Part shown: positions 15,030 through 55,097 of the stretch, piece by piece
Numbering within the stretch: the stretch's first letter is position 1
How the letters are laid out: each line of letters starts with the position of its first letter
Source: Desulfomonilia bacterium
Lineage (GTDB): Bacteria; Desulfobacterota; Desulfomonilia; UBA1062
Assembly (NCBI GenBank): GCA_963664325.2
Contig: CAXXDQ010000004.1
Location: forward strand, 832,001 to 896,000
Direction of reading: 5' to 3'
DNA: 64,000 nucleotides
The notes under the pieces: model-generated
Told to the model about the DNA's origin: nothing
Database searches by the model: none
What the model saw: only the letters and a program-made list of their open reading frames with translations
Translations under genes and position numbers: made by a program

Positions 15030-16439
15030 CTACATATAGCTCGAACCGTCCCAGCAGTGCGTGCAAAGCTTGTCTTTCGGCAGCCCTATCGCATCAACAA
15101 GATCGTCAAGGCGCTGATATTTCAATGTTGTCAGTTTAAGCCTTTTTCGAATGCATTCGACCATTTCCTCATATTTCTCTGAATCCGCTTTTGCATATTC
15201 GTGAAGACAGTCACATTTCTCTGGGTCGACTCCAAGTTCTTTCATCGCCGTTCTGCTGGCAAGGTCGAGAGACGAACGTGAGCGCGAGAAGTTGAGGAAT
15301 TCGCACGGGTAGACAAGAGGGGGACAGGCGACACGCATGTGTATTTCGGATGCGCCGCAGCTGTAAAGGATCTGGACATTGTCTTTTAGCTGTGTTCCCC
15401 GCACGATTGAATCATCGCAGAATACAAGTCGCTTGCCCTCGATGAGCGCCCTGTTGGGAATGAGCTTCATCTTGGCCACCAAGTCTCGCATTTCCTGGTT
15501 TTGCGGCATAAAACTCCTGGGCCATGTAGGTGTGTATTTCACATATGGCCTCATGTAAGCTATATGGCGCTCGTTCGCATAACCTATCGCATGGCCGATT
15601 CCGGAATCAGGTATCCCCGAAACGATGTCAGCCGGCATGCTGTCGTTGCGCCCCAGTGCGTTTCCGCATCTGTACCTGACATATTCCACATTGATGCCTT
15701 CATAATTTGATGTGGGATAACCGTAGTACACCCATAAAAATGAGCAGACCTGCATCTTCTCGCCGGGAGCCTTTATGTGTTCAACACCGCCGGGGGTTAT
15801 AAGCACGATTTCACCGGGCCCGAGGCAATATTCCTCGATATAGCCCAGGTTAAGAAAGGCGCTGGATTCTGAACTGACGGCATAGGCGCCTTCTTTCTTT
15901 CCTATTATAATGGGTGTACGCCCAAGTTTATCGCGTGACGCGTATATGCCCTGCTCTGTAAGCAACAGGATAGAGCATGAACCTTTAACCATTTCCTGCG
16001 CATAGGCAAGCCCCTCGGAGTATGAACCCTGCTCACATATGGTTACGGCCACAAGCTCGGTCGGGTTTATGTCATCGCCTGATGTTTCGGTGAAATAGTT
16101 TTTGTGGTTAAACGCAAGCTCTGCAAGTTCTGTTGTGTTGTTGATCTTTGATACTGTCACAATCCCAAATCTGCCGAGATGAGAGTTCAGGACTAAAGGC
16201 TGCGCATCTGTATCGCTAATGACACCGATACCTGTATTGCCTTCAAATTCGGTCAGATCAGGCTCAAACTTGTTTCTGAAATAAGCGTTTTCGATGTTGT
16301 GGATGGACCTTTTGAACGAGTGGTTCTTCAAGACAGCCATACCGCCTCGCATAGTGCCCAGGTGTGAGTGATAATCGGTACCGTAAAACAACTCTTTAAC
16401 ACAATCGCTTTTTGAAGCTACACCGAAAAATCCGCCCAT
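15030..16439 (-). CDS. purF: Amidophosphoribosyltransferase, variant without N-terminal Cys
   Basis: PDSG, DDSIVRGT PRPP motif, Fe-S cysteines (ACPP, CTHCW); begins MGGFFG after a GGAGG SD. Confidence 0.9.
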   Translation of the reverse strand: MGGFFGVASKSDCVKELFYGTDYHSHLGTMRGGMAVLKNHSFKRSIHNIENAYFRNKFEPDLTEFEGNTGIGVISDTDAQPLVLNSHLGRFGIVTVSKINNTTELAELAFNHKNYFTETSGDDINPTELVAVTICEQGSYSEGLAYAQEMVKGSCSILLLTEQGIYASRDKLGRTPIIIGKKEGAYAVSSESSAFLNLGYIEEYCLGPGEIVLITPGGVEHIKAPGEKMQVCSFLWVYYGYPTSNYEGINVEYVRYRCGNALGRNDSMPADIVSGIPDSGIGHAIGYANERHIAYMRPYVKYTPTWPRSFMPQNQEMRDLVAKMKLIPNRALIEGKRLVFCDDSIVRGTQLKDNVQILYSCGASEIHMRVACPPLVYPCEFLNFSRSRSSLDLASRTAMKELGVDPEKCDCLHEYAKADSEKYEEMVECIRKRLKLTTLKYQRLDDLVDAIGLPKDKLCTHCWDGSSYM

Positions 16440-16682
16440 GTTTCCTCCATGTATTAATTTGCCGACAGGCAAAATAGACGAGATATTTATGTCAGAGAAA
16501 AGATATCAGTACAAGCAGGAAGTCTCTTTAATTTTTATGGATTCGTAAAAGGCCTTCTGTGAATATAAGTCCTGTATTGTTTACTGGAAAGTTTATTTCG
16601 AAATATTACAGCAAGGGATTAATTATCAAATTCTCAAGCGATAATATCCGGATTTCTTTTTAAATTTTCAATTTTCCGCAAG

Positions 16683-16787
16683 CTATGATTTGTGATGCTG
16701 CAAGGTACTGTTCGTTGCATGGGCTTTAAATGCAAACCTTACTGTAATTGCCAGAAAAGCGGTTATTCCTATTGCTGTGAATATCAT
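16683..16787 (-). CDS. 34-aa single-TM small protein (not in the ORF track)
   Basis: MIFTAIGITAFLAITVRFAFKAHATNSTLQHHKS; ATGA overlap with the upstream stop and AGGAGG SD. Confidence 0.6.
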   Translation of the reverse strand: MIFTAIGITAFLAITVRFAFKAHATNSTLQHHKS

Positions 16788-17023
16788 CTTTTTACCCTCC
16801 TTTCCGAGATTGCTTCCTGGATGAAACCTTTGAAGCCCAGTATGATACCGGCAATAAGGAAAAGGAAAGTGAAGTTGGGCGCCAAGCCTGTTACCTTATC
16901 AATGTACATACCAAGATAAAGTCCAAGAAAAGTCACGATAACAAGCACCAGTCCATGAGCACTGATCCTTGTTATCTTCTGCAAGAGTTCCCTTGAGAAC
17001 TTTTCTTTTTTGATATTTTTCAT
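16784..17023 (-). CDS. AtpZ/AtpI-like (ATPase gene 1 family) small membrane protein
   Basis: GLYLGMYIDK..GLAP.F..LFL..GI..GF two-helix signature. Confidence 0.75.
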   Translation of the reverse strand: MKNIKKEKFSRELLQKITRISAHGLVLVIVTFLGLYLGMYIDKVTGLAPNFTFLFLIAGIILGFKGFIQEAISERRVKR

Positions 17024-17055
17024 GGCACCCTCTTTTTTGTTATTTTAAATATCCC

Positions 17056-17232
17056 TTAGAAAAGAAGCGCAATCAGTTGTCTTGCCGGTGCTGTATTTAC
17101 CGAGATCAAAGTGACGATAAGTACGTATACTGCTGCAGCCTCAACAGGTGTAAGCCCCAGAACCTTGTATGTGAACCTTACTCCGATTCCTGTTATAAAT
17201 AAGCATCCTATTACTATCCAAAGTGTAAGCAT
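17056..17232 (-). CDS. 58-aa two-TM small membrane protein
   Basis: MLTLWIVIGCLFITGIGVRFTYKVLG...; AAGGAG SD. Confidence 0.7.
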   Translation of the reverse strand: MLTLWIVIGCLFITGIGVRFTYKVLGLTPVEAAAVYVLIVTLISVNTAPARQLIALLF

Positions 17233-17270
17233 CTTGCTTCTCCTTTCGTTTGTTTTACTGATGAACATGG

Positions 17271-17286
17271 AGCAATGACCATGCCA
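17271..17286 (-). promoter_or_regulatory. Sigma54 (-24/-12) promoter
   Basis: TGGCATGGTCATTGCT (GG-N10-GC), about 40 bp upstream of the 58-aa ORF. Confidence 0.8.
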
Positions 17287-17350
17287 GGTTTTGAACATAT
17301 GCAACACTCTGAAATTACAAAGTTATTTTATATAGCTGCAAAGCATATAG

Positions 17351-17447
17351 TGCCACAATGACAAAATGGCTTTTCCTTCGGCAGCCGGTATGTGACAATT
17401 TGTCAATCGGCCATGATGTGCTCTCGGTCTATTATGACATGGTGTCA
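17351..17447. promoter_or_regulatory. Three palindromic enhancer-like sites TGACA-N3-TGTCA
   Basis: Perfect copies at 17393-17405 and 17435-17447, degenerate TGCCA-CAA-TGACA at 17351-17363; centres 42 bp apart. Confidence 0.7.
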
Positions 17448-17546
17448 AAGACCCGGGTTGAGCGAGTTTTAAAAAGGATTGACTTTAACAGTGCCGTACC
17501 GCACATCTATATAAAATCTTTTCGATAATCCCGCAGGAGGTGCTTC

Positions 17547-20303
17547 TTGGCAAACTGGCATTCGTTAAAGGCGTCATCTGTCTTTGATGAGCTGAAGACT
17601 TCGATAAACGGCCTGTCGAATAGTGATGCCGCCAGACGTCTTGCAGAGGACGGCCCTAATGAACTCAAAGAGCAGGGATCAAAAAATCCTTTAAAAATCC
17701 TGTGGGAACAGTTTACGGCATTCATGGTTTTGATTCTTATAGTGGCTGCCATAATTTCATTTTTTCTGGGTGAGCATATTGATGCTACGGCCATATTGGT
17801 TATTGTGATCGTGAACGGCATATTGGGTTTCCGCCAGGAGTACAAGGCAGAGAAGGCCATGGCTGCCTTAAAAAAAATGTCTGTCCCTATTGTCAGGCTC
17901 AAACGCGAAGGCCGGGTGATGGAGATTCCATCACTGGAAATTGTTCGTGGAGACATTGTACTTCTGGAAGCGGGGAACCTCGTTCCAGCCGATGGAAGGC
18001 TTATTGAATCGGCCAATCTGCGCATTCAGGAGGCTGCGCTTACCGGAGAAAGCGAGCCTGTCGAAAAATATGAAGATATTGTAACAGGCGAGAATATCCC
18101 TCTGGGTGACAGAAAGAACATGGCATATATGGGCACGGTCGTGACATATGGCCGTGGCCAGGCGGTTGTCACTGCCACGGGTATGTCAACTGAGCTCGGC
18201 AATATTGCATCAATGCTTCAGAAAGTGGGAGGCGAGCAGACTCCGCTTCAAAACAGGCTCGATCAGCTGGGTAAAAAACTTGCGCTAATCGCAGCAGTCC
18301 TTGTTGGGATAATTTTTATTGAAGGGCTCATTATTGAGGGCAGGGGTGCCATAAAAGAGCTTTTCCTGACCGCTGTAAGCATGGCTGTTGCCGCGGTGCC
18401 GGAAGGACTTCCAGCCGTAGTTACGATAGCCCTTGCGATCGGGGCTCAGCGGATGCTCAGGCGCAGGGCTCTCATTCGCAAACTGCCTGCAGTTGAAACG
18501 CTTGGCTCGGTAACAGTCATATGTTCGGACAAGACAGGGACTCTTACTGAAAATGTCATGACAGTAACAATGCTTGATGTAGCCGGGCATACCCTTGACC
18601 TTACCGAACACCTGAAAAAGGCTAGTCCTTTTCTGAATTCCGGTGATCCTGATATTCCAAAGGATAAAATTCACGCCATGACGCTGCTTCTAGCCGGTGG
18701 TGCGCTGTGCAATGACGCAGAACTGAGGGTTGACCCCTCAACAGCCAATATCAGTGCAATAGGCGATCCGACGGAAGGGGCCATTGTTGTTGCTGCAATG
18801 AAAGCGGGGCTTTCAAAGACCGATATGGAGAAAAACCTGCAAAGGGTTCTTGAACTGCCGTTTGATTCCGAACGCAAACGCATGACGACCGTTCATGGAA
18901 TATCCAAGGAAAAGCTCAGCACAGAGATGAAAGAATGGCATGTGAACTTTGGATCGCCTTCATATGTAGCATTTACAAAAGGTGCTGTCGACCAGCTGCT
19001 TGATGCAACAGCATCGGTCTTGAACGACGGTGTTGTCAAGCCTCTTGATGACGGGATACGCGGAAAAATTCTGGCATCAAACAATTCAATGGCAGGCAAA
19101 GGCATGCGTATATTAGGTGTTGCCATGAAAGCTTTCAATGCAAAACCACATCAGGATGAGCTTGAAAAAGGCCTTGTATTTATAGGCATGGTCGGGATGA
19201 TTGACCCGCCGAGACAGGAAGTAAAAGAGTCTGTTAATACATGCAAGACGGCCGGCATCAGGCCTGTGATGATAACCGGTGATCATCCGCTTACGGCAGA
19301 GCACATTGCAAGGGAGCTGGGAATCTATGATGGCGGCAGGGTTATTACCGGCCGGGAACTTGCCTGCATGTCAATCGAAGAGCTGGAGAATGTTGTTGAT
19401 GATGTTTCAGTCTATGCAAGGGTATCTCCAGAACATAAACTTAATATAGTAAAAGCGCTGCAGGATAAGGGGCATATCGTGGCCATGACAGGCGACGGGG
19501 TGAATGATGCACCTGCGCTGAAAAAGGCGGATATCGGCGTCGCAATGGGCATTACAGGGACCGATGTCTCGAAAGAAGCTTCCGACATGGTATTGCTGGA
19601 TGATAATTTTGCCACAATTGTTGCGGCCGCCGAAGAAGGCCGTGCGATTTATGATAATATCCGGAAGTTCTTCAGATACCTTATGGGAACAAATGCAGGA
19701 GAGCTGATCGTAATGCTAACCGCCCCCTTTCTTGGCATGCCGCTTCCTCTGCTGCCCCTTCAGATATTATGGATGAACCTCGTAACGGACGGACTGCCGG
19801 CTCTTGCACTGGGTGTTGAGCCTTCGGAAAGGGATATCATGAAAAGACCACCATACCCGCCGAATGAAAGCGTGTTTTCAAGGGGTATGGCTGTCCATAT
19901 CCTGTGGGCGGGTTTGCTTATGGCCACAGTCACTCTCGGCATGGGCTACTGGGCCTGGTGGGAACATGGATTTACGGCGAAGGCATGGCCTGTCGTTCAG
20001 ACAATGATATTCACGACCATTACACTTACGCAGATGGGGAACGTTATGGCCGTGCGTTCAGAAAAACGCTCTCTCTTCGAGATCGGGGTTTTTACGAACA
20101 AACCCCTGCTGCTGGCAGTGTTGGCTACTGTTATACTCCAGATATTCCTTATATATACACCATTTATGCAGAAGATTTTCCGCACCATACCGCTCGATCC
20201 GATTGATTTTATCATCAGCATGGTTATGAGCACGGTTGTGTTTTTTGCAATTGAATTTGAAAAATGGCTTTTCAGGATCAAAGACTCTAGGCATAAGGCA
20301 TAG
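17547..20303 (+). CDS. Cation-translocating P-type ATPase (P2A, Ca2+-type)
   Basis: LTGES, VPEGL, DKTGT, KGA, MITGD, TGDGVND; multiple TM helices. Confidence 0.95.
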
Positions 20304-38706: not shown

Positions 38707-39563
38707 ATGGAGATTTCCAAGAAATCGATTATATACGTACCCGACGGTATAGAACCGGGTGTTGCACTCGCCCGGACAACACACATGGCAATAGGTCCGC
38801 CCATCAGGACGATGCCGAGATAATAGCGCATGACATCATCTCCCAGTGTTTTGACAATCCCTTCAAGTGGTTTACCTGTATCGTTGTGGCAGACGGTGCA
38901 GGAAGTGCGAGAAAGGGAAAATATTCAGAAATTTCAAAAGCGGAACTTGTAAAGATAAGAAATGCAGAACAGAAGGAAGCCGCCCGGACAGGAGATTACG
39001 GGGGCGCTTATACTGCTGGGGGCATCCAAGCGGTATTGTCAAAAATCCCAATCAGATCGTCGTAACGGATGAATTGAGGGGTATTTTGAAATGGGCAAAA
39101 CCGGATTACATTTACACTCACAATCCGTTTGACGTTCATGATACGCATGTTGCCGTTCTGCTCAGGACACTGGATGCCCTCAGACGCCTTTCCGGTGAAT
39201 ATATGCCCGAAAAGGTCTACGGATGCGAAGTGTGGAGAAGCCTCGACTGGCTGCTGCCTGAAGACCGAATACCGATTGATGTTTTCGCTTCGGCCTGAAC
39301 TGGCTAAAAATCTGCTTGGGCTCTTTGAATCGCAGATCGGTTCCGGTAAGCGGTACGACCTTGCAGTACTGGGCAGGAGGCTTGCGAATGCCACCTTTGA
39401 CAGTGCGGTAAACCCCGATGCTTCAGATGCTCTCAGCTATGCAATTGACCTGAAACCTTTGATAGACAGTCCGGGTCTTGATATGAGTGTATTCGTAAGG
39501 GAATTCCTCGACAGGTTCAAAGACGATGTAATAAGCCGAATAGAAAGGCTTGGGGGAATCTGA
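38707..39563 (+). CDS. PIG-L/LmbE family deacetylase (frameshifted)
   Basis: AHQDDAE, DGAGS, R..EQ, THN..D.HDTH across frames. Confidence 0.8.
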
Positions 39564-40564
39564 TGAAAAAGAAGGCTGCCTGTTTTAACGTGATTAAGGA
39601 GATGTTTGAGGCAGCCGATGCGATCCGAAATTTTAACCCCGGGGTTGTTAAAGATTTTACCTGTGAAGCGAAGGGATACAATATGCTGTTTTTTACCGGA
39701 GAAGGAAGCAGCAGGATGTTTCCCGCAGCCCATGCCGTGTGGCTTTCCATGAGGCATGGAGGACCTGCCCCTGGCCTTTTCAGCTGGCTCGGACAGAGGC
39801 CCTTGCTTATGACCTTAAAAACTGTGCGGTATTTGCGGCGACAAATTCAGGCATGACAAAAGAGACCATAAGGCTTTTAACCAGACTCGGTTCAGAAGGC
39901 CATCAGGCCCTTTATGCAGTCACGAATTCCCCTGGAACACCTGTAACAGAAGCCGCAAGCAGGACATACATCCTTTCATGCGGTATGGAAATGGCGATAC
40001 CGGCAACAAAAAGCCTGATCGAACAGGCGCTCTTTTACCACGCGCTCATTTTTGATATGGCCGGCACCCCGCTGGATGGCCTCATGGAGACGGGGAACGT
40101 CTTTGAAGAGGCGTTGTCGCAGGATATACCAGCTGTGCTTGTTGAAAAGACGGCCGGGGCGCCTTTTATATATTTTGCAGGATGGAACAATGGGGTGGCC
40201 GAAGAATTGTCGCTGAAGGCGGGGGAACTTTTACGGAAGAAAACGAGGTTCCTTGAAGGCACGATACTGCTTCACGGAATAGGAAGAGGTGATGGATAAG
40301 GGCGAGATGGTGGTGCTGATTGATCCGTTTGAAGAGGATGAAGCCCTGATAAAAAAAAGGCTTGAAGAGAATATTGGTGTTCATGTCATTGCAGTTTCTG
40401 AAAGACAAACCCTGTTTCCGACCATTCTTATTCCGCAGGCCCCAGGTTTTGAATGTTATATCCAGATGGCCGCGGCCTGGAACATGCTGGTAAAGGCGGG
40501 CCTGCTGCTGGGGCTGGACATTGATCATCCTGCAAGGGTGAAGAAGGTCGGCAATGCAGTATGA
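39563..40564 (+). CDS. SIS-domain sugar isomerase/deaminase (frameshifted)
   Basis: TGEGSS, NSGMTKET, ATKS, EELSLK, LLHG. Confidence 0.8.
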
Positions 40565-40711
40565 TTCTCTTCTGAATTCAAAACATGCCAGTGCATTCTC
40601 TGCCGGAACACCACTCGATATGCCCGAAAGTATGCCTCTTGCGCTTCCTGTCGGCTTTCCTGGCATCATTACGAATGCAAACCGGAATAAATATCATTAG
40701 ATAAGGAGATA

Positions 40712-41511
40712 ATGATGAAAAAATTAATCTCTGCCGTTGCTCTTTTTACAGGACTGGCCGGGCTGGCAGCTCTTTCTGGGTGTTCAGATGTCCCTACAGG
40801 CAGCCTTCTTGAAGGAGTAAAACCCGGTCCCGATGGAAAGATTAATGTTGTGACTGTTTTCAGCCATCCTGATGATGAAACATTCTATACCGGCGGCACG
40901 CTCCCTGAAGATGAAAAAGGATCCGAGGGTCAGGCTCCACATAGTCTGCTTGACCAACGGCAACATGGACGAGGCAAAGGAAAATCTCGGGATTACGAGG
41001 ATCAGCTTGGTAAATTCAGAAAGAAGAGCTGAAACTTGCAGGTCTGGTGCTTGGAGCCGACAGTGTCGTCTGTCTCGACTATGACGACCAGGGACTTGAA
41101 CCTGCCGACAAAGAAATAATGCTTAAACGCGTGCTTGATGAAATTAGTAAGAGCAATGCGGCAATAGTAATCACTAACGACCCGTTCGGGCTTTCGGGAC
41201 ACCCGGATCACATCGCCTGCAACAGTGTTGCCAAAAAGGCGTTTGATAAATCCTCGGCGCAAAGGCTTTACTATATAACCATGACGCCCTGGCGCTATAA
41301 ATACAACATGATTTTCGCCCTGTCGGATTCAAAAGCGGAAAAGTCAAAACCGAGTATGCGCGTAGACATATCAAAGGAAAAGAAACTCAAGAAACTGGCC
41401 CTTTACAGCCATGTGACACAGGCCAATTTCTCGTTCTGGAACTCGATCGCCATGACAGAGGACCTCTGGTACAACTACGAGTATTTTACACTTGCGGGAC
41501 AGAAACAATAA
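40712..41511 (+). CDS. PIG-L family deacetylase lipoprotein (frameshifted)
   Basis: Lipobox LSGC, SHPDDE, CLTNG, GHPDH. Confidence 0.8.
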
Positions 41512-42424
41512 TTGAAAAGACCGGCATACATTCATTTACATGAGAATGGCATCCTGGCTGATCGAATTGAAAGGGCCATCGACTCATTAAAAGAATGCAG
41601 ACTATGCCCCAGAGGCTGCTGCGCTGACAGGCTTAAAGGACCAAACGGTTTCTGCCGTACAGGGAGATATGCTAAAGTGGCCAGCTACGGCCCGCATTTC
41701 GGGGAGGAAGCTCCGCTTATCGGTTCTCACGGCTCAGGGACAATATTTTTTTCATCCTGCAACCTGCTCTGTTCCTTCTGCCAGAACCATGGCATCAGCT
41801 TCGGCAATATCGGAAATGAAGTAAGACCTGATGAACTCGCCTCAATAATGCTTGAGCTTCAGTGCGCCGGTTGCCACAATATAAATTTCGTCACGCCCTC
41901 ACATGTAGTTCCTCAAATCCTAGAGGCAATACCTGCCGCCATTGAAAAAAGGTCTTAACATTCCCCTGGTTTTCAATACAGGCGGTTATGATTCAGTAAA
42001 AACTCTTAAGCTTTTGGACGGCATTTTTGACATATATATGCCTGACTTCAAGTTCTGGGACAATGAACATGCCAGGCGTTTCTGCAATGTTGATGATTAC
42101 AGAGAGGCGGCCTGTGAGGCGATAACTGAAATGCACACCCAGGTTGGAGATCTGGTGATTGAAAGCGGAATCGCCGTTAAAGGTGTTTTATTAAGGCACC
42201 TTGTAATGCCTGAAGGCGTTGCTGGTACAGGGGATGTGATGAATTTTATCGCCGGGAAGATTTCAATAAACACATATGTTAATATTATGAACCAGTACCG
42301 GCCGCACTTCAATGCAAACAGGGCTAACCTTATAGGCAGGTCCATAACTGAGGCTGAATTTTCTCAGGCGCTCTTATTTGCTGTCAGATCCGGACTGACA
42401 AGGATATGTGGTGTAACAATATGA
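41512..42424 (+). CDS. Radical SAM protein (PflX-like), one frameshift in the A-run near 41945
   Basis: CRLCPRGC, CNLLCSFCQN, HNINFVTP, DIYMPDFK, RHLVMP. Confidence 0.88.
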
Positions 42425-50528: not shown

Positions 50529-51190
50529 ATAGAGCAATGCAGTACAATCTTGTTTGTTATTCGGGTATGATGTTACTTGTTTTTTTTATCGTCTCGGGAT
50601 GTGCTCATACCCCTGACAAGGAACTCCCTGTCGATGTCCTGTATAAACAGGCTCAGGATTTTGCAAAGGGAGGCAGGGTTGAAAAGGCATCAGAGGCTTA
50701 TATGAAAGTCAGGACATTCTATCCTGGAAACGACCTTGCGAAACAGTCTCTGCTGGAACTCTCCGACCTTTATTATAAAAATGAAGAGTATGTTTCCGCC
50801 TTGAACAGCTATCAGGAGTTCAGGATGCTTTATCCTACTGATGCGAAATCCGAATACTGCATGTTCAGGTCGGCAATGTGCCATTTCAGGCAGATATTGA
50901 CCATAGACAGGGACCAGTCAGAGACAATCAAATCAATTAAATCTTTTGAAGATTTCCTTCGCATGTACCCCAACTCGACTTATGCGAGTGAGGCTAATGA
51001 AGACCTTAAGAAATCAAAAACAGTACTGGCAAAAAACGGGATATATATCGGGAAATTCTATATGAAGAAAAAGAAATGGCATGAAGCTGCTTGCAAGAGA
51101 TTTAATGAGGTGAAGAAAGGCTTTCCTGGTCTAGGCCTGGATGAGGAGCTTGATAAACTTATTGAGCAGTCCTGCGGTGCTAAGAAGTAG
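50525..51190 (+). CDS. bamD: Outer membrane assembly lipoprotein BamD
   Basis: Lipobox VSGC, TPR repeats, DRDQ, YPNS.Y. Confidence 0.88.
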   Translation: MNRAMQYNLVCYSGMMLLVFFIVSGCAHTPDKELPVDVLYKQAQDFAKGGRVEKASEAYMKVRTFYPGNDLAKQSLLELSDLYYKNEEYVSALNSYQEFRMLYPTDAKSEYCMFRSAMCHFRQILTIDRDQSETIKSIKSFEDFLRMYPNSTYASEANEDLKKSKTVLAKNGIYIGKFYMKKKKWHEAACKRFNEVKKGFPGLGLDEELDKLIEQSCGAKK

Positions 51191-53046
51191 GGCAGAGTTT
51201 CCTGTTGTCTCCCACTCTTAAGGTCAGCCTTATCCTGTCAAGGTATTCCATATAGGGTATTGCATATTTTCGGCTGACCCCGGTAATCATTTTCATATCT
51301 GTCGGATTCATGGTGCCTTTCTCTTTCAGGAATGCCCTTATCTTGTCTTTAAGGTGAGCCTCATTTTCATCAGTGAGGAAAATATCATCCTTGATCCTGA
51401 ACAACCTGCCTTCCCTGACCATAAACGAAAGAATTCCAGTGAGCTTCTTCATATCAACCCCCAGCTTTTCCGAAATTTCCGCAGGGCCGGGAGGTTCAAG
51501 GCCGGCTTTGTTGAGAAGCATGTATATGCTCGTTGTGGTATCTTTATCATTTCCGAGGGACGCGTTGAAATCTTTCATCCTGATATTCGGTCCATCCTCG
51601 ATAACAGCCTGGTTTTTTATCATATCGGTCAGGGCTTTATGGAATAGTTTGGAATTGGCTTTTGCCTTGATGGAGGATCTGAGATGTTCCTTTGATATTC
51701 CCGGTGATGATGGATTTGCTTCGTGATAACCTGCAACGGAACTGGAAATTATATTTTTCAGCACGGCCAGATGTCTGGAACTCACATATGTATCATTCTG
51801 GGTATCAAATCTTACAATCTCATTTCTTGTCTGAAGTTCCTGCAGGAGCTTTTCAATTGCTTGAGAGTTGTCAGCCAGGTGTGCCTGAAGAGTATTTTTG
51901 GATATACCCGACAGGCCCGAATCCGAAACAAGACCAGGGATTACCCTTGATAGATTGCCGCTCATAAGCTCAACTGCAATTTCGGCTGAAAATCTTCTTA
52001 ACGGATACGGGTTTATGACCTTCCCTCCCCCTAATGTTGCACCCGGGGAAATGCTTCTGATAATAAATCTGTTGCCTACGGATGCAATAACTGGATCTTT
52101 CAGCCTGATGCGTGCAACTGTCTTATCTCCGGAACTGTACAGGTTCATATTGCCGTCGACCTCGGCAGTACCTGTATAGAACCTTATTCCTCCTTTACCG
52201 GGCTGTTTTATGAGCCTGAGCTCGGCATCGATAACTCGTGTTGGCTTGAAAATGCCTGCTGGAACAAGCCATTGTCCCCTGGCAATTTCCTCCCGGTCTA
52301 TCCCCTGCAGGTTTATTGCCGTTCTCATGCCTGCGGCAGCAGTTTCCACACTCTCGGAATGTATCTGTATGCTCCTTATTTTTGCCTTGATGCCTGAAGG
52401 CAGTATCTCCACATCCTGACCTTCTGCAAAGGTGCCTTTGGCCAGTGTCCCGGTTACAACCGTTCCAAAACCTTTAATGGTGAACACCCTGTCAATCGGA
52501 AGAAATGCAATGCCTGAATTGTTTCTTTCCTTTGCCTCAAGCACTTCTTTTTCAAGTACTTGAAGCAGTCTGTCGAGTCCGAAACCGGTAACGGAGCTTA
52601 CAGGAATGACCGGCGTATCCTTTAGGAAAGTGCCTTCGAGGAATGATTTGACATCTGAAACGGCTAGATCAAGAAGGTCTTCGTCGACCATGTCGGTTTT
52701 AGTAAGTGCAACGACTCCCTTTTCAATCCCCAGGAGTTCGCATATCTGGACATGTTCGACAGTCTGGGGCATGACCCCTTCATCGGCTGCGACAATCAAT
52801 ATTACAAGGTCAATACCGGAGGCACCAGAAAGCATATGGCGTATGAATTTGACATGCCCCGGGACATCGACAACGCCGACTCTTTCCCCTGACGGCAGGG
52901 ACCAGGGAGGCGAATCCCAGCTCAATTGTCAGCCCTCTTTCCTTCTCCTCCTTGAGCCTGTCGCAGTCAATTCCTGTCAGAGCTTTAATGAGTGACGTCT
53001 TTCCGTGGTCGACATGACCGGCAGTTCCGATTACTATTCGTTTCAT
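51180..53046 (-). CDS. selB: Selenocysteine-specific elongation factor, +1 frameshift near 52902
   Basis: [26 protein letters not shown]-terminal SRKYAIP..EYLD. Confidence 0.95.
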
Positions 53047-53821: not shown

Positions 53822-54906
53822 TTATGAATGACTTTTTTCAAATTTGACCATGAAATCTGCAAGTTTCTGTGCACCCTCCACCGGCAGGGCATTATACATG
53901 GAGGCCCTTATCCCGCCGACCGAACGGTGTCCCTTGAGACCGATAAGCTTTAGCTTGCCTGCCTCGGCAAGAAATTCCGTTTCAAGGTCTTCAGTGGGAA
54001 GTCTGAATGGTATATTCATTTTCGATCTGGAATTCTTCTGGACAGTTCCCTTGTAGAATGAGCTGTTGTCGATTACGTCATAAACAATAGCCGCCTTTTT
54101 GTTGTCGATTTTTTCCATTTCTGTCAGTCCGCCCAGGCCTATGATCCAGTTCATGACTTCATGGATCACGAAAATGCCGATGCACGGCGGTGTATTGTAG
54201 AGAGAGTTGTTTTCAGCATGAATCTTGTAGTCCAGCATTGTGGGAATACTTTCCGGCGCCTTGCCGATAAGATCTTCCCTTATTATAACCAGGGTTACTC
54301 CGGCGGGGCCTGCATTTTTCTGGGCGCCTGCGTAAATGAGTCCGAAATCGGATACGTTGATCTTTCTGGACAGTATATCTGATGACATGTCGCAGACCTT
54401 GGGGACGCTTCCGGTATCAGGGAAACTCTGCCACTGGGAGCCGTAGATGGTATTATTTGATGTGAGATGGCAGTAGGCAGCATCCTTTGTAAGCTTGAGC
54501 TCTGACAGCTCTGGAATTCTGACATATTTTTCTTCTTTGTTGAAGCTGCTATATTGACCCTGCCGACTTTTTTTGCTTCCTTGATTGCCTTTGAAGACCA
54601 GCTACCGGTATCGATGTAGTCGGCAACCTGGCCTTCTCCCAACAAATTAAGGGGTACCATGGAAAATTGCAGGCTTGCTCCACCCTGTAAAAACAAGACT
54701 TTGTAATTATCAGGTATGCCCAGGACTTTTTTAACAAGATCGATTGTTTCATTTAGAAGTGATTCGAATTGTTTTGAGCGGTGGCTTACCTCCATTATAG
54801 ACATGCCTGTGCCTGCAAAATTGATAACAGCCTTGCTTGTAGTCTCCAAAACCGGTTCAGGAAGAACCGCCGGGCCCGCATTAAAAATATAAACGTCTCT
54901 ACTCAT
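53822..54906 (-). CDS. serC: Phosphoserine aminotransferase, single -1 frameshift near 54537
   Basis: FNAGPA, SHRS, QGGAS, DMSS, AGAQKN.GPAG, GHRSVGG.RAS. Confidence 0.95.
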
Positions 54907-55097
54907 AATATTCACCTCCTGCATTATTGTTAAAGGTTTTATATACCCAAAGAAACGCTAAATATAAAGACGAAAAAGAATTAAATAGAATCAGTAAGAT
55001 AAATGCCGTACTTGACGGATTTGCATTAAGCTGGCAACCTCTGTCCTAGAATATTTTTCAATCCTTGCATCTGTTTTAATATCCTGGAGGTATAGAT

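Follow-up and report, generated by a model that had tools for sequence, protein, structure and literature searches.

A multicopy sigma54-type operon of three small membrane proteins in Desulfomonilia, one of them a probable relative of ATP synthase subunit c

The R-N-P loop of ATP synthase subunit c docks F1, and the size of the c ring is usually taken as fixed for a given species. Subunit c (AtpE, PF00137) includes the members of hybrid rings, for example c1 of A. woodii (PDB 4bem). AtpI is a chaperone of the c ring (PMC4154653, PMC2881411), and the PF09527 proteins AtpZ of B. pseudofirmus OF4 and AtpQ, the product of N-ATPase gene 1, are described as encoded inside atp operons (PMC4453477, PMC2881411, PMC4154653). 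B. pseudofirmus AtpZ is reported to aid Mg2+ acquisition, and a link to calcium uniporters has been suggested (PMC4453477, citing Hicks 2003 and Lee 2014). The small ATP synthase inhibitors AtpTheta, the zeta subunit and IF1 are soluble or amphipathic, and none is c-like as described in PMC12648545 and bioRxiv 10.64898/2026.10.01.756066. Here we compare with these systems a locus in which a PF09527 gene is found outside an atp operon, in the company of two other small membrane proteins.

A sigma54-type operon and its conserved enhancer

In the window (the whole 64,000-nucleotide stretch of DNA that was analysed), a module of ~800 bp on the minus strand consists, in the order of reading, of three enhancer boxes, an IHF-like site, a sigma54 element and the ORFs A, B and C. 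ORF A (17056..17232) encodes a two-helix membrane protein of 58 aa that carries Glu31 and belongs to no Pfam family. ORF B (16784..17023) encodes a 79-aa helical hairpin of the AtpZ/AtpQ family (PF09527), and ORF C (16683..16787), which overlaps the B stop codon in an ATGA, encodes 34 aa with a single helix and a basic tail. All three ORFs had been picked out in a first-pass annotation made from the sequence alone, and the family assignment of B lies above the Pfam cutoff. No second copy of A, B or C is present elsewhere in the window, and there is no atpE within it, in keeping with the remark in that annotation that an atp operon is missing here.

The -24/-12 element, TGGCAT-GGTCA-TTGCT, is located at 17271..17286 (minus strand), with a predicted start near 17260. 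It is the single match to TGGCAY-N5-TTGCW in the whole window, although this motif by itself is weak, as 22 of 100 window shuffles contain one. Upstream of it are three palindromes of the type TGHCA-N3-TGDCA at 17351..17363 (proximal, centre 17357), 17393..17405 (middle, centre 17399) and 17435..17447 (distal, centre 17441), all given for the minus strand and spaced by exactly 42 bp, as had been proposed. The window has two box pairs with this 42-bp spacing, whereas none turned up in 100 shuffles. The distal and middle boxes are perfect TGACA-N3-TGTCA palindromes; the proximal box, centred 71 bp upstream of the -24 element, has two mismatches to that sequence and none to the family consensus TGHCA-N3-TGDCA, which was derived from homologous promoters with the window's own included. 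An IHF-like 13-mer with an upstream A/T tract at 17302..17314 (minus strand) has one mismatch to the IHF consensus used for scoring, WATCAR-N4-TTR; the site had been recognized earlier, with coordinates off by one base.

These elements are conserved. Promoters were compared for the 76 copies of A with 260 nt of upstream DNA, omitting seven of 83 copies (six truncated, one the second gene of a tandem pair). The sigma54 element is present with at most one mismatch in 75 of the 76, and three boxes with at most four mismatches in total are likewise found in 75 of 76, as compared with one of 1,262 random windows. Box spacing ranges from 40 to 44 bp in the family, mostly 40–42 bp, the proximal box stands 67–71 bp from the -24 element, and outside the window it is the middle box that has degenerated most. 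The IHF consensus is matched with at most one mismatch in 60 of 75 promoters (246 of 1500 shuffles), at a single offset (-28/-27) in 59 of them, and an SD-like site precedes A in all 83 copies. The arrangement of a -24/-12 element, upstream palindromes and an intervening IHF site at fixed spacing is that of a sigma54/IHF/bEBP promoter, and its conservation upholds the sigma54 promoter of the first-pass annotation. That annotation had also proposed a scan for palindromes associated with sigma54 sites. A matrix trained on the module promoters, run over 2.34 Mb of DNA (both strands counted), added a single site to those known, and this one stands ahead of another, truncated A; the promoter thus occurs solely before A, and in the sampled DNA the regulon consists of the module alone.

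A P-type ATPase gene begins 100 bp from the distal box of the window, on the opposite side of the enhancer from the operon, and it had been suggested that the micro-proteins regulate this divergent P2A pump in the manner of KdpF, MgtS or sarcolipin. Its product is of the Ca type (best match TIGR01522, 745 bits, under the cutoff of 798). The closeness of the pump gene speaks for the suggestion, as does the size of C, which with ~34 aa and one membrane pass is comparable to MgtS (31 aa) and KdpF (29 aa) (PMC12648545). However, a search for P-type ATPases by their DKTGT motif found none in the flanks of 76 related loci, the full 10 kb upstream being available for 47 of them. Outside the window, an upstream gene was called for 75 copies, and in no case is it a P-type ATPase; the genes upstream of the module differ widely among loci. 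The likeness to KdpF, MgtS and sarcolipin is thus confined to the size and topology of C, whereas a conserved linkage to a pump is lacking in these loci. Regulation of the divergent ATPase is therefore highly improbable and the pump in the window is a bystander with no conserved link to the module, although regulation of a P-type pump in trans, as for MgtS, is possible. Because the boxes keep their 67–71 bp distance from the sigma54 site in copies that have no ATPase nearby, they belong to the small operon.

No cognate activator was found in the flanks of the 76 loci, where the one bEBP gene, at L048:10717-12087 (minus strand), encodes a REC-sigma54-HTH protein and converges on the module; it is a weak candidate for the activator. 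The -24/-12 consensus agrees with that given in PMC4641369, which also provides the nearest published enhancer motif found, that of the sigma54 EBP DVU1949 of the D. vulgaris nitrogen regulon. Its half-sites are similar and some of its sites are spaced by 41–42 bp (PMC4641369, supplement 3), but the sites presented there are of the TTACA-N4-TGTAA type, with a spacer of 4 bp rather than the 3 bp of the module boxes. DVU1949 was ruled out on this difference, and the activator is probably a different one.

Downstream of C by 210 bp, on the same strand, is an amidophosphoribosyltransferase (purF)-like gene (window 15030-16472, minus strand), which is not a neighbour of the module in any other locus. 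No intrinsic terminator was detected between C and this gene, and the A/T-rich spacer contains three weak sigma70-like sites. No Rfam family matches 16400-17600. Elsewhere in the window we noted what we take to be a serC-like gene divided between two ORFs that overlap (53822-54924, minus strand), a presumably selB-like ORF without a start (51180-52925, minus strand) and several fragmented ORFs at 38867-42424; these are possibly frameshift errors of the assembly.

Distribution, copy number and gene neighbourhood

Protein searches returned 168 homologs of A and, among the 120 matches listed, most are exactly 58 aa long. With HMMER, 18 matches were obtained among 1.84 billion representatives, and 14 of them are real, indicating a narrow family; four long matches (P0129, P0131, P0135 and P0137) were dropped as repeat artefacts. 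A GTDB scan confirmed 99 stretches, and the best 80 of these, comprising 76 loci, were kept, so all counts are lower bounds. At least 82 A genes beyond the window were found in at least 41 GTDB genomes, giving 83 copies with that of the window. When genomes were grouped by WGS prefix, the numbers of copies were at least one in 13 genomes, two in 18, three in seven and four in three, such that at least 28 of 41 genomes have 2–4 copies of the module. Hosts are labelled mostly as Deltaproteobacteria, Desulfomonilia or Syntrophaceae UBA1062/UBA6087, and the labels Thermodesulfobacteriota, Bacteriovoracaceae and Firmicutes are intermixed with these in the tree. Taken with bioRxiv 10.1101/2020.12.28.424620, these labels suggest a single host lineage of uncultured anaerobes, probably Desulfomonilia_A/UBA1062. 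The phosphite oxidizer Phox-21, a member of the host order, is among the hosts (locus L021).

Among the 77 copies with at least 450 nt of downstream DNA, 61 have ABC, seven AC, four AB and five A alone, in a count that was ascertained on A and used B and C HMMs built from the same loci. For 62 close pairs out of 1,711, dN/dS was 0.20 for A, 0.25 for B, 0.31 for the helix of C and 0.45 for its tail; with pairs picked by each gene's own divergence, the values were 0.24, 0.30 and 0.71 for A, B and C. Values were thus below 1 for all three ORFs, and together with the further copies of A they bear out the conservation of the small ORFs. Departures from the common layout were also seen: a tandem A-A without B or C (L039:1722-2092), an orphan C gene (L025:15278-15379), and enhancer and C remnants of decayed copies (L017:14269-14310 and L018:14256-14354).

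Some genomes have copies that are 95–97% identical to one another, a similarity limited to the stretch between distal box and terminator region. Near-identical copies with sharp boundaries in unrelated flanks, along with the remnants and partial copies, could be read as the trace of a selfish or mobile module that spreads without a host function. However, the nearest neighbour in the tree comes from the same genome for 10 of 69 copies, and most copies fall into old syntenic subfamilies. The boundaries fall at the enhancer and the terminator, which is what gene conversion would predict; no phage or plasmid record matched the module, and dN/dS is below 1 for all three ORFs. The selfish reading is largely refuted. 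In the genome containing L025 and L032, both sites are occupied by divergent alleles in other genomes, and this, with the near identity of same-genome copies, suggests gene conversion among copies as in dosage-selected gene families. Copy number and homogenization may reflect selection for high dosage. The recurrent neighbours (helicase-like, glyoxalase-fold, acyltransferase, metallo-beta-lactamase-fold, AsmA, epimerase, ABC transporter and kinase genes) represent ancestral synteny and have no functional theme.

Relationship of proteins A, B and C to ATP synthase components

B scores 40.8 bits with PF09527 (Pfam cutoff 26.6), and the same family was found in 60 of 60 B homologs; the ESM Atlas also returned PF09527 for B. 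It keeps the invariant Asp42/Pro49 hairpin and shares with AtpZ and AtpQ the predicted two-helix fold, but unlike these it is encoded outside atp operons, both in the window and in the other module loci. Canonical atpZ exists apart from B in L047 and L068, and B is 27–31% identical to the atp-operon AtpZ of the same genomes, identifying it as a separate paralog. Foldseek with the B model gave no match at E≤0.001, and PDB sequence searches with B and C profiles gave nothing useful.

C is a paralog of A residues 1–29, its helix 1, over 29 columns (hhalign probability 94.6, E 6.8e-8), and has no Pfam or NCBIfam family. Paralogy of A and C had been suggested in the first-pass annotation from a shared motif, which is present with a spacer of six residues (IG-x6-I-x-VRF-xx-K) in place of the five reported. 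No homology was found between A and B. A single 93-aa sequence, P0133, joins A residues 1–42 to the C-terminal two-thirds of B and is either a natural fusion or an assembly chimera.

Glu31 of A is invariant (91 of 91 members). When the A profile was compared with the 177,635 sequences of the PDB, the sole matches at E≤10 were two c subunits (E 0.056 and 1.7), both with Glu31 on the ion-binding Glu, and the E 0.056 match was repeated with a second alignment. An AtpE HMM built from 120 AtpE relatives, run over 29,302 six-frame segments, placed two true atpE on top, followed by A and A' (a longer homolog described below); over the 1,851 segments of the window A was the sole match (E 0.0013). With the leader removed, all 83 A copies, which are one family and whose scores are thus not independent, scored 6.6–18.6 bits (window copy 16.6). 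None of 152 unrelated clusters of membrane proteins exceeded 5.8 bits, and B and C stayed at or below 2.4 and 5.3. In family-level permutations with 17 of the 68 A copies of 58 aa, none of 500 reached the observed median of 11.7 (maximum 7.0), and this was done twice. The gapless register of A and AtpE comprises G-5, L-4, E0, A+3, aromatic+5, L+7, L+11 and P+18; A therefore has the helix-2 carboxylate with G-5, aromatic+5, L+7, L+11 and P+18 that marks subunit c. Helix 1 of A has the glycines G9, G15 and G17, and GIG aligns weakly, which makes these at best a tentative counterpart of the GxGxGxG packing motif of c.

Other comparisons set A apart from c. Pfam ATP-synt_C (PF00137) matches none of the 91 A members and the NCBIfam c model one (E 0.036), so A stays under all family cutoffs. 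It lacks the cytoplasmic R-N/Q-P loop that c has 20 residues ahead of its Glu, as well as the Na+ ligands Gln and Ser. A and A' are short of about 29 residues, corresponding to the cytoplasmic ends of both helices in the middle of the protein. Whereas c is an atp operon product, A is encoded outside that operon, from a sigma54-driven, multicopy gene; it keeps company with a PF09527 gene, as c does. Direct hhalign of A with AtpE was weak (probability 2.5–2.7, P 0.017–0.019), and its level was reached by five of 150 and one of 150 column shuffles and by seven of 152 decoys on score or one of 152 on E-value. A HMMER full-library search with A found no c subunit at E≤0.001. The AlphaFold monomer of A (pLDDT 86.5) is a hairpin with Glu31 in the first turn of helix 29–46 and not mid-helix; with helix 2 predicted to start at residue 29, Glu31 may be a capping residue. 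The motif T-P-x-E is also a generic helix N-cap. Foldseek with this model gave no match at E≤0.001, and VIA-align was non-specific (best Z 6.7): a c-ring chain from Tetrahymena came in at rank 20 (Z 6.0), level with hairpins of unrelated proteins. The top ESM Atlas cluster was a 58-aa family without a name, and weak Pfam/NCBIfam matches to DUF7454, MWFE and SecE were discarded as generic helix matches.

The A homolog A', of 91 aa, is intact in L015, L048 and L076 and broken in L067 and L073. It is located upstream of its own 87-aa PF09527 gene (Z') in a second operon (L015:1827-2409, L076:10753-11323 and L048:8514-9136, all minus strand), within about 3.5 kb of an ABC module in all five loci. 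Ahead of this operon are a site of the sigma54 type and a palindrome unlike that of the module (TTCATTCAAT ... ATTGAATGAA in L015 and L076). The deltaproteobacterial c subunits of the AtpE set carry a signal-peptide-like leader of about 25–30 aa and have Gln/Glu/Ser/Tyr, with no Thr, at the Na+-site positions. A' has a leader of the AtpE type, which on an AtpE-leader HMM outscored the remaining leaders of the loci (22–24 bits against 18). End to end, A' aligned with AtpE by hhalign (probability 60–71, E 4–8e-5; none of 152 decoys), in a result that comes from three intact members 85–90% identical to one another and partly from the leader. The register differs from that of A, with Gly66 rather than the Glu on the AtpE Glu, and R-Y-P stands merely 8 residues before the Glu, as compared with 20 for the c loop. 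The A' profile had no match in the PDB.

Taken together, the sequence comparisons make it likely that A derives from subunit c of the ATP synthase and has lost the cytoplasmic crown. By the family criteria A is itself not an AtpE, and the claim is one of descent and possible mimicry; descent by itself is no demonstration of action on Fo. In both genomes where atpE was seen, a normal atpZ-atpI-atpB-atpE order is kept, so A does not replace c. These Fo operons are at L047:15710-17455 (plus strand), ~5 kb from the module, and at L068:11332-13093 (minus strand), ~1 kb from it. The module is near an Fo operon in these two of 76 loci and unlinked to atp genes in the other 74, and the proximity in the two is either chance or a relic of origin.

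Possible actions of the module

Two readings of the module dispense with the ATP synthase. In one, A, B and C are membrane-stress or dormancy effectors, similar to Psp proteins or type I toxins, and the resemblance to c is a convergence of capped hydrophobic helices. The psp regulon also couples sigma54, IHF and a dedicated activator to small membrane proteins, the direct c match of A is under family thresholds, and Glu31 is at the start of its helix in the predicted model. Against this, helix 2 of A and the leader of A' are separate segments and each ranks AtpE first relative to decoys, A and A' both adjoin AtpZ paralogs, and the module region has no Rfam match. No PspA or PspF was found among 31 neighbour representatives of 619 clusters, and in the flanks the promoter occurs solely before A. 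We consider convergence unlikely. In the other reading, the three proteins, whether or not A descends from c, assemble independently of the ATP synthase into an oligomer that conducts or leaks Mg2+, Ca2+, Na+ or H+. The role of B. pseudofirmus AtpZ in Mg2+ acquisition, with its suggested uniporter link (PMC4453477), the intact Asp42/Pro49 hairpin of B, the invariant Glu of A and the distance of most modules from atp genes would fit such a conduit. It would, however, account for the c-like register and the leader only if A were to form a ring as c does; B is missing from 12 of 77 copies, though it could be supplied in trans from other copies; and among the same 31 neighbour representatives there is no recurrent gene for a transporter or for metal homeostasis. 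We regard a stand-alone conduit as quite unlikely.

We favour, with a probability of roughly 45%, the reading that the module supplies, on induction and in high dosage, a set of proteins for modulating the Fo sector of the cell's ATP synthase. The first-pass annotation had offered ATP synthase assembly as an alternative target; a tie to the enzyme gains support from the family of B and the c-like character of A, while action on Fo is what we infer from them. A dedicated sigma54 activator would bind the three phased boxes and, with the DNA bent by IHF, switch on all copies of the operon together; the promoter architecture emerges from conservation, and transcription and joint induction of the copies would be expected from it. 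A would retain the outer helix with the Glu and would have lost the crown with the F1-docking loop, B would be a dedicated AtpZ/AtpQ paralog assisting A, and C a paralog of A reduced to helix 1, the three perhaps forming a physical complex. A may pack into or against the c ring, or occupy a binding partner of c; alternatively, subunit a could be the target, or the assembly factors AtpI and AtpZ could be tied up. The outcome would be a brake on, or a retuning of, ion-coupled ATP synthesis or hydrolysis under some condition, with target, direction of effect and signal all proposed here on these grounds. This mode would resemble that of AtpTheta or of a hybrid-ring subunit, reached by mimicry of c. 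AtpTheta, zeta and IF1 offer the parallel of a proposed conditional, dose-dependent brake on the ATP synthase (PMC12648545, bioRxiv 10.64898/2026.10.01.756066), but A has no evident sequence relationship to them and, in contrast to them, is an integral, c-like membrane protein with a predicted Fo target. The host order is described as having no classical respiratory chain, with an F-ATPase proposed to work in hydrolysis mode and build an ion gradient (bioRxiv 10.1101/2020.12.28.424620), and if so a brake would save ATP, as AtpTheta does in cyanobacteria (PMC12648545, bioRxiv 10.64898/2026.10.01.756066).

A doubtful, more specific version of the favoured Fo reading is that A is a crown-less c inserted into the rotor on demand with the help of its own AtpZ-type assembly factor, where it would act as a decoy that jams the ring or as a change of gear. 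Extra ion-binding sites without F1 contacts would alter the ion/ATP ratio, the effect would be amplified by multicopy, gene-converted sigma54 operons, and A'-Z' would be a second, independently regulated version.

No account of the A/B/C module or of a loop-less c paralog was found in the literature searched, to which most subscription papers did not belong. The parts are of known kinds (AtpZ, variant c subunits, small regulators of ATP synthase), and the combination is without a match in that search. If the favoured reading is correct, a conditional, c-derived rotor mimic would be a new form of Fo regulation, found in anaerobes whose metabolism runs close to the thermodynamic limit. It would also open a way into the AtpZ/AtpQ family, which is poorly understood and has been duplicated twice here with a c-like partner. 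Even if the link to c fails, there remains a regulon of unannotated micro-proteins that spans the lineage in multiple copies under one type of promoter, and its enhancer is defined precisely enough to serve in finding the activator.
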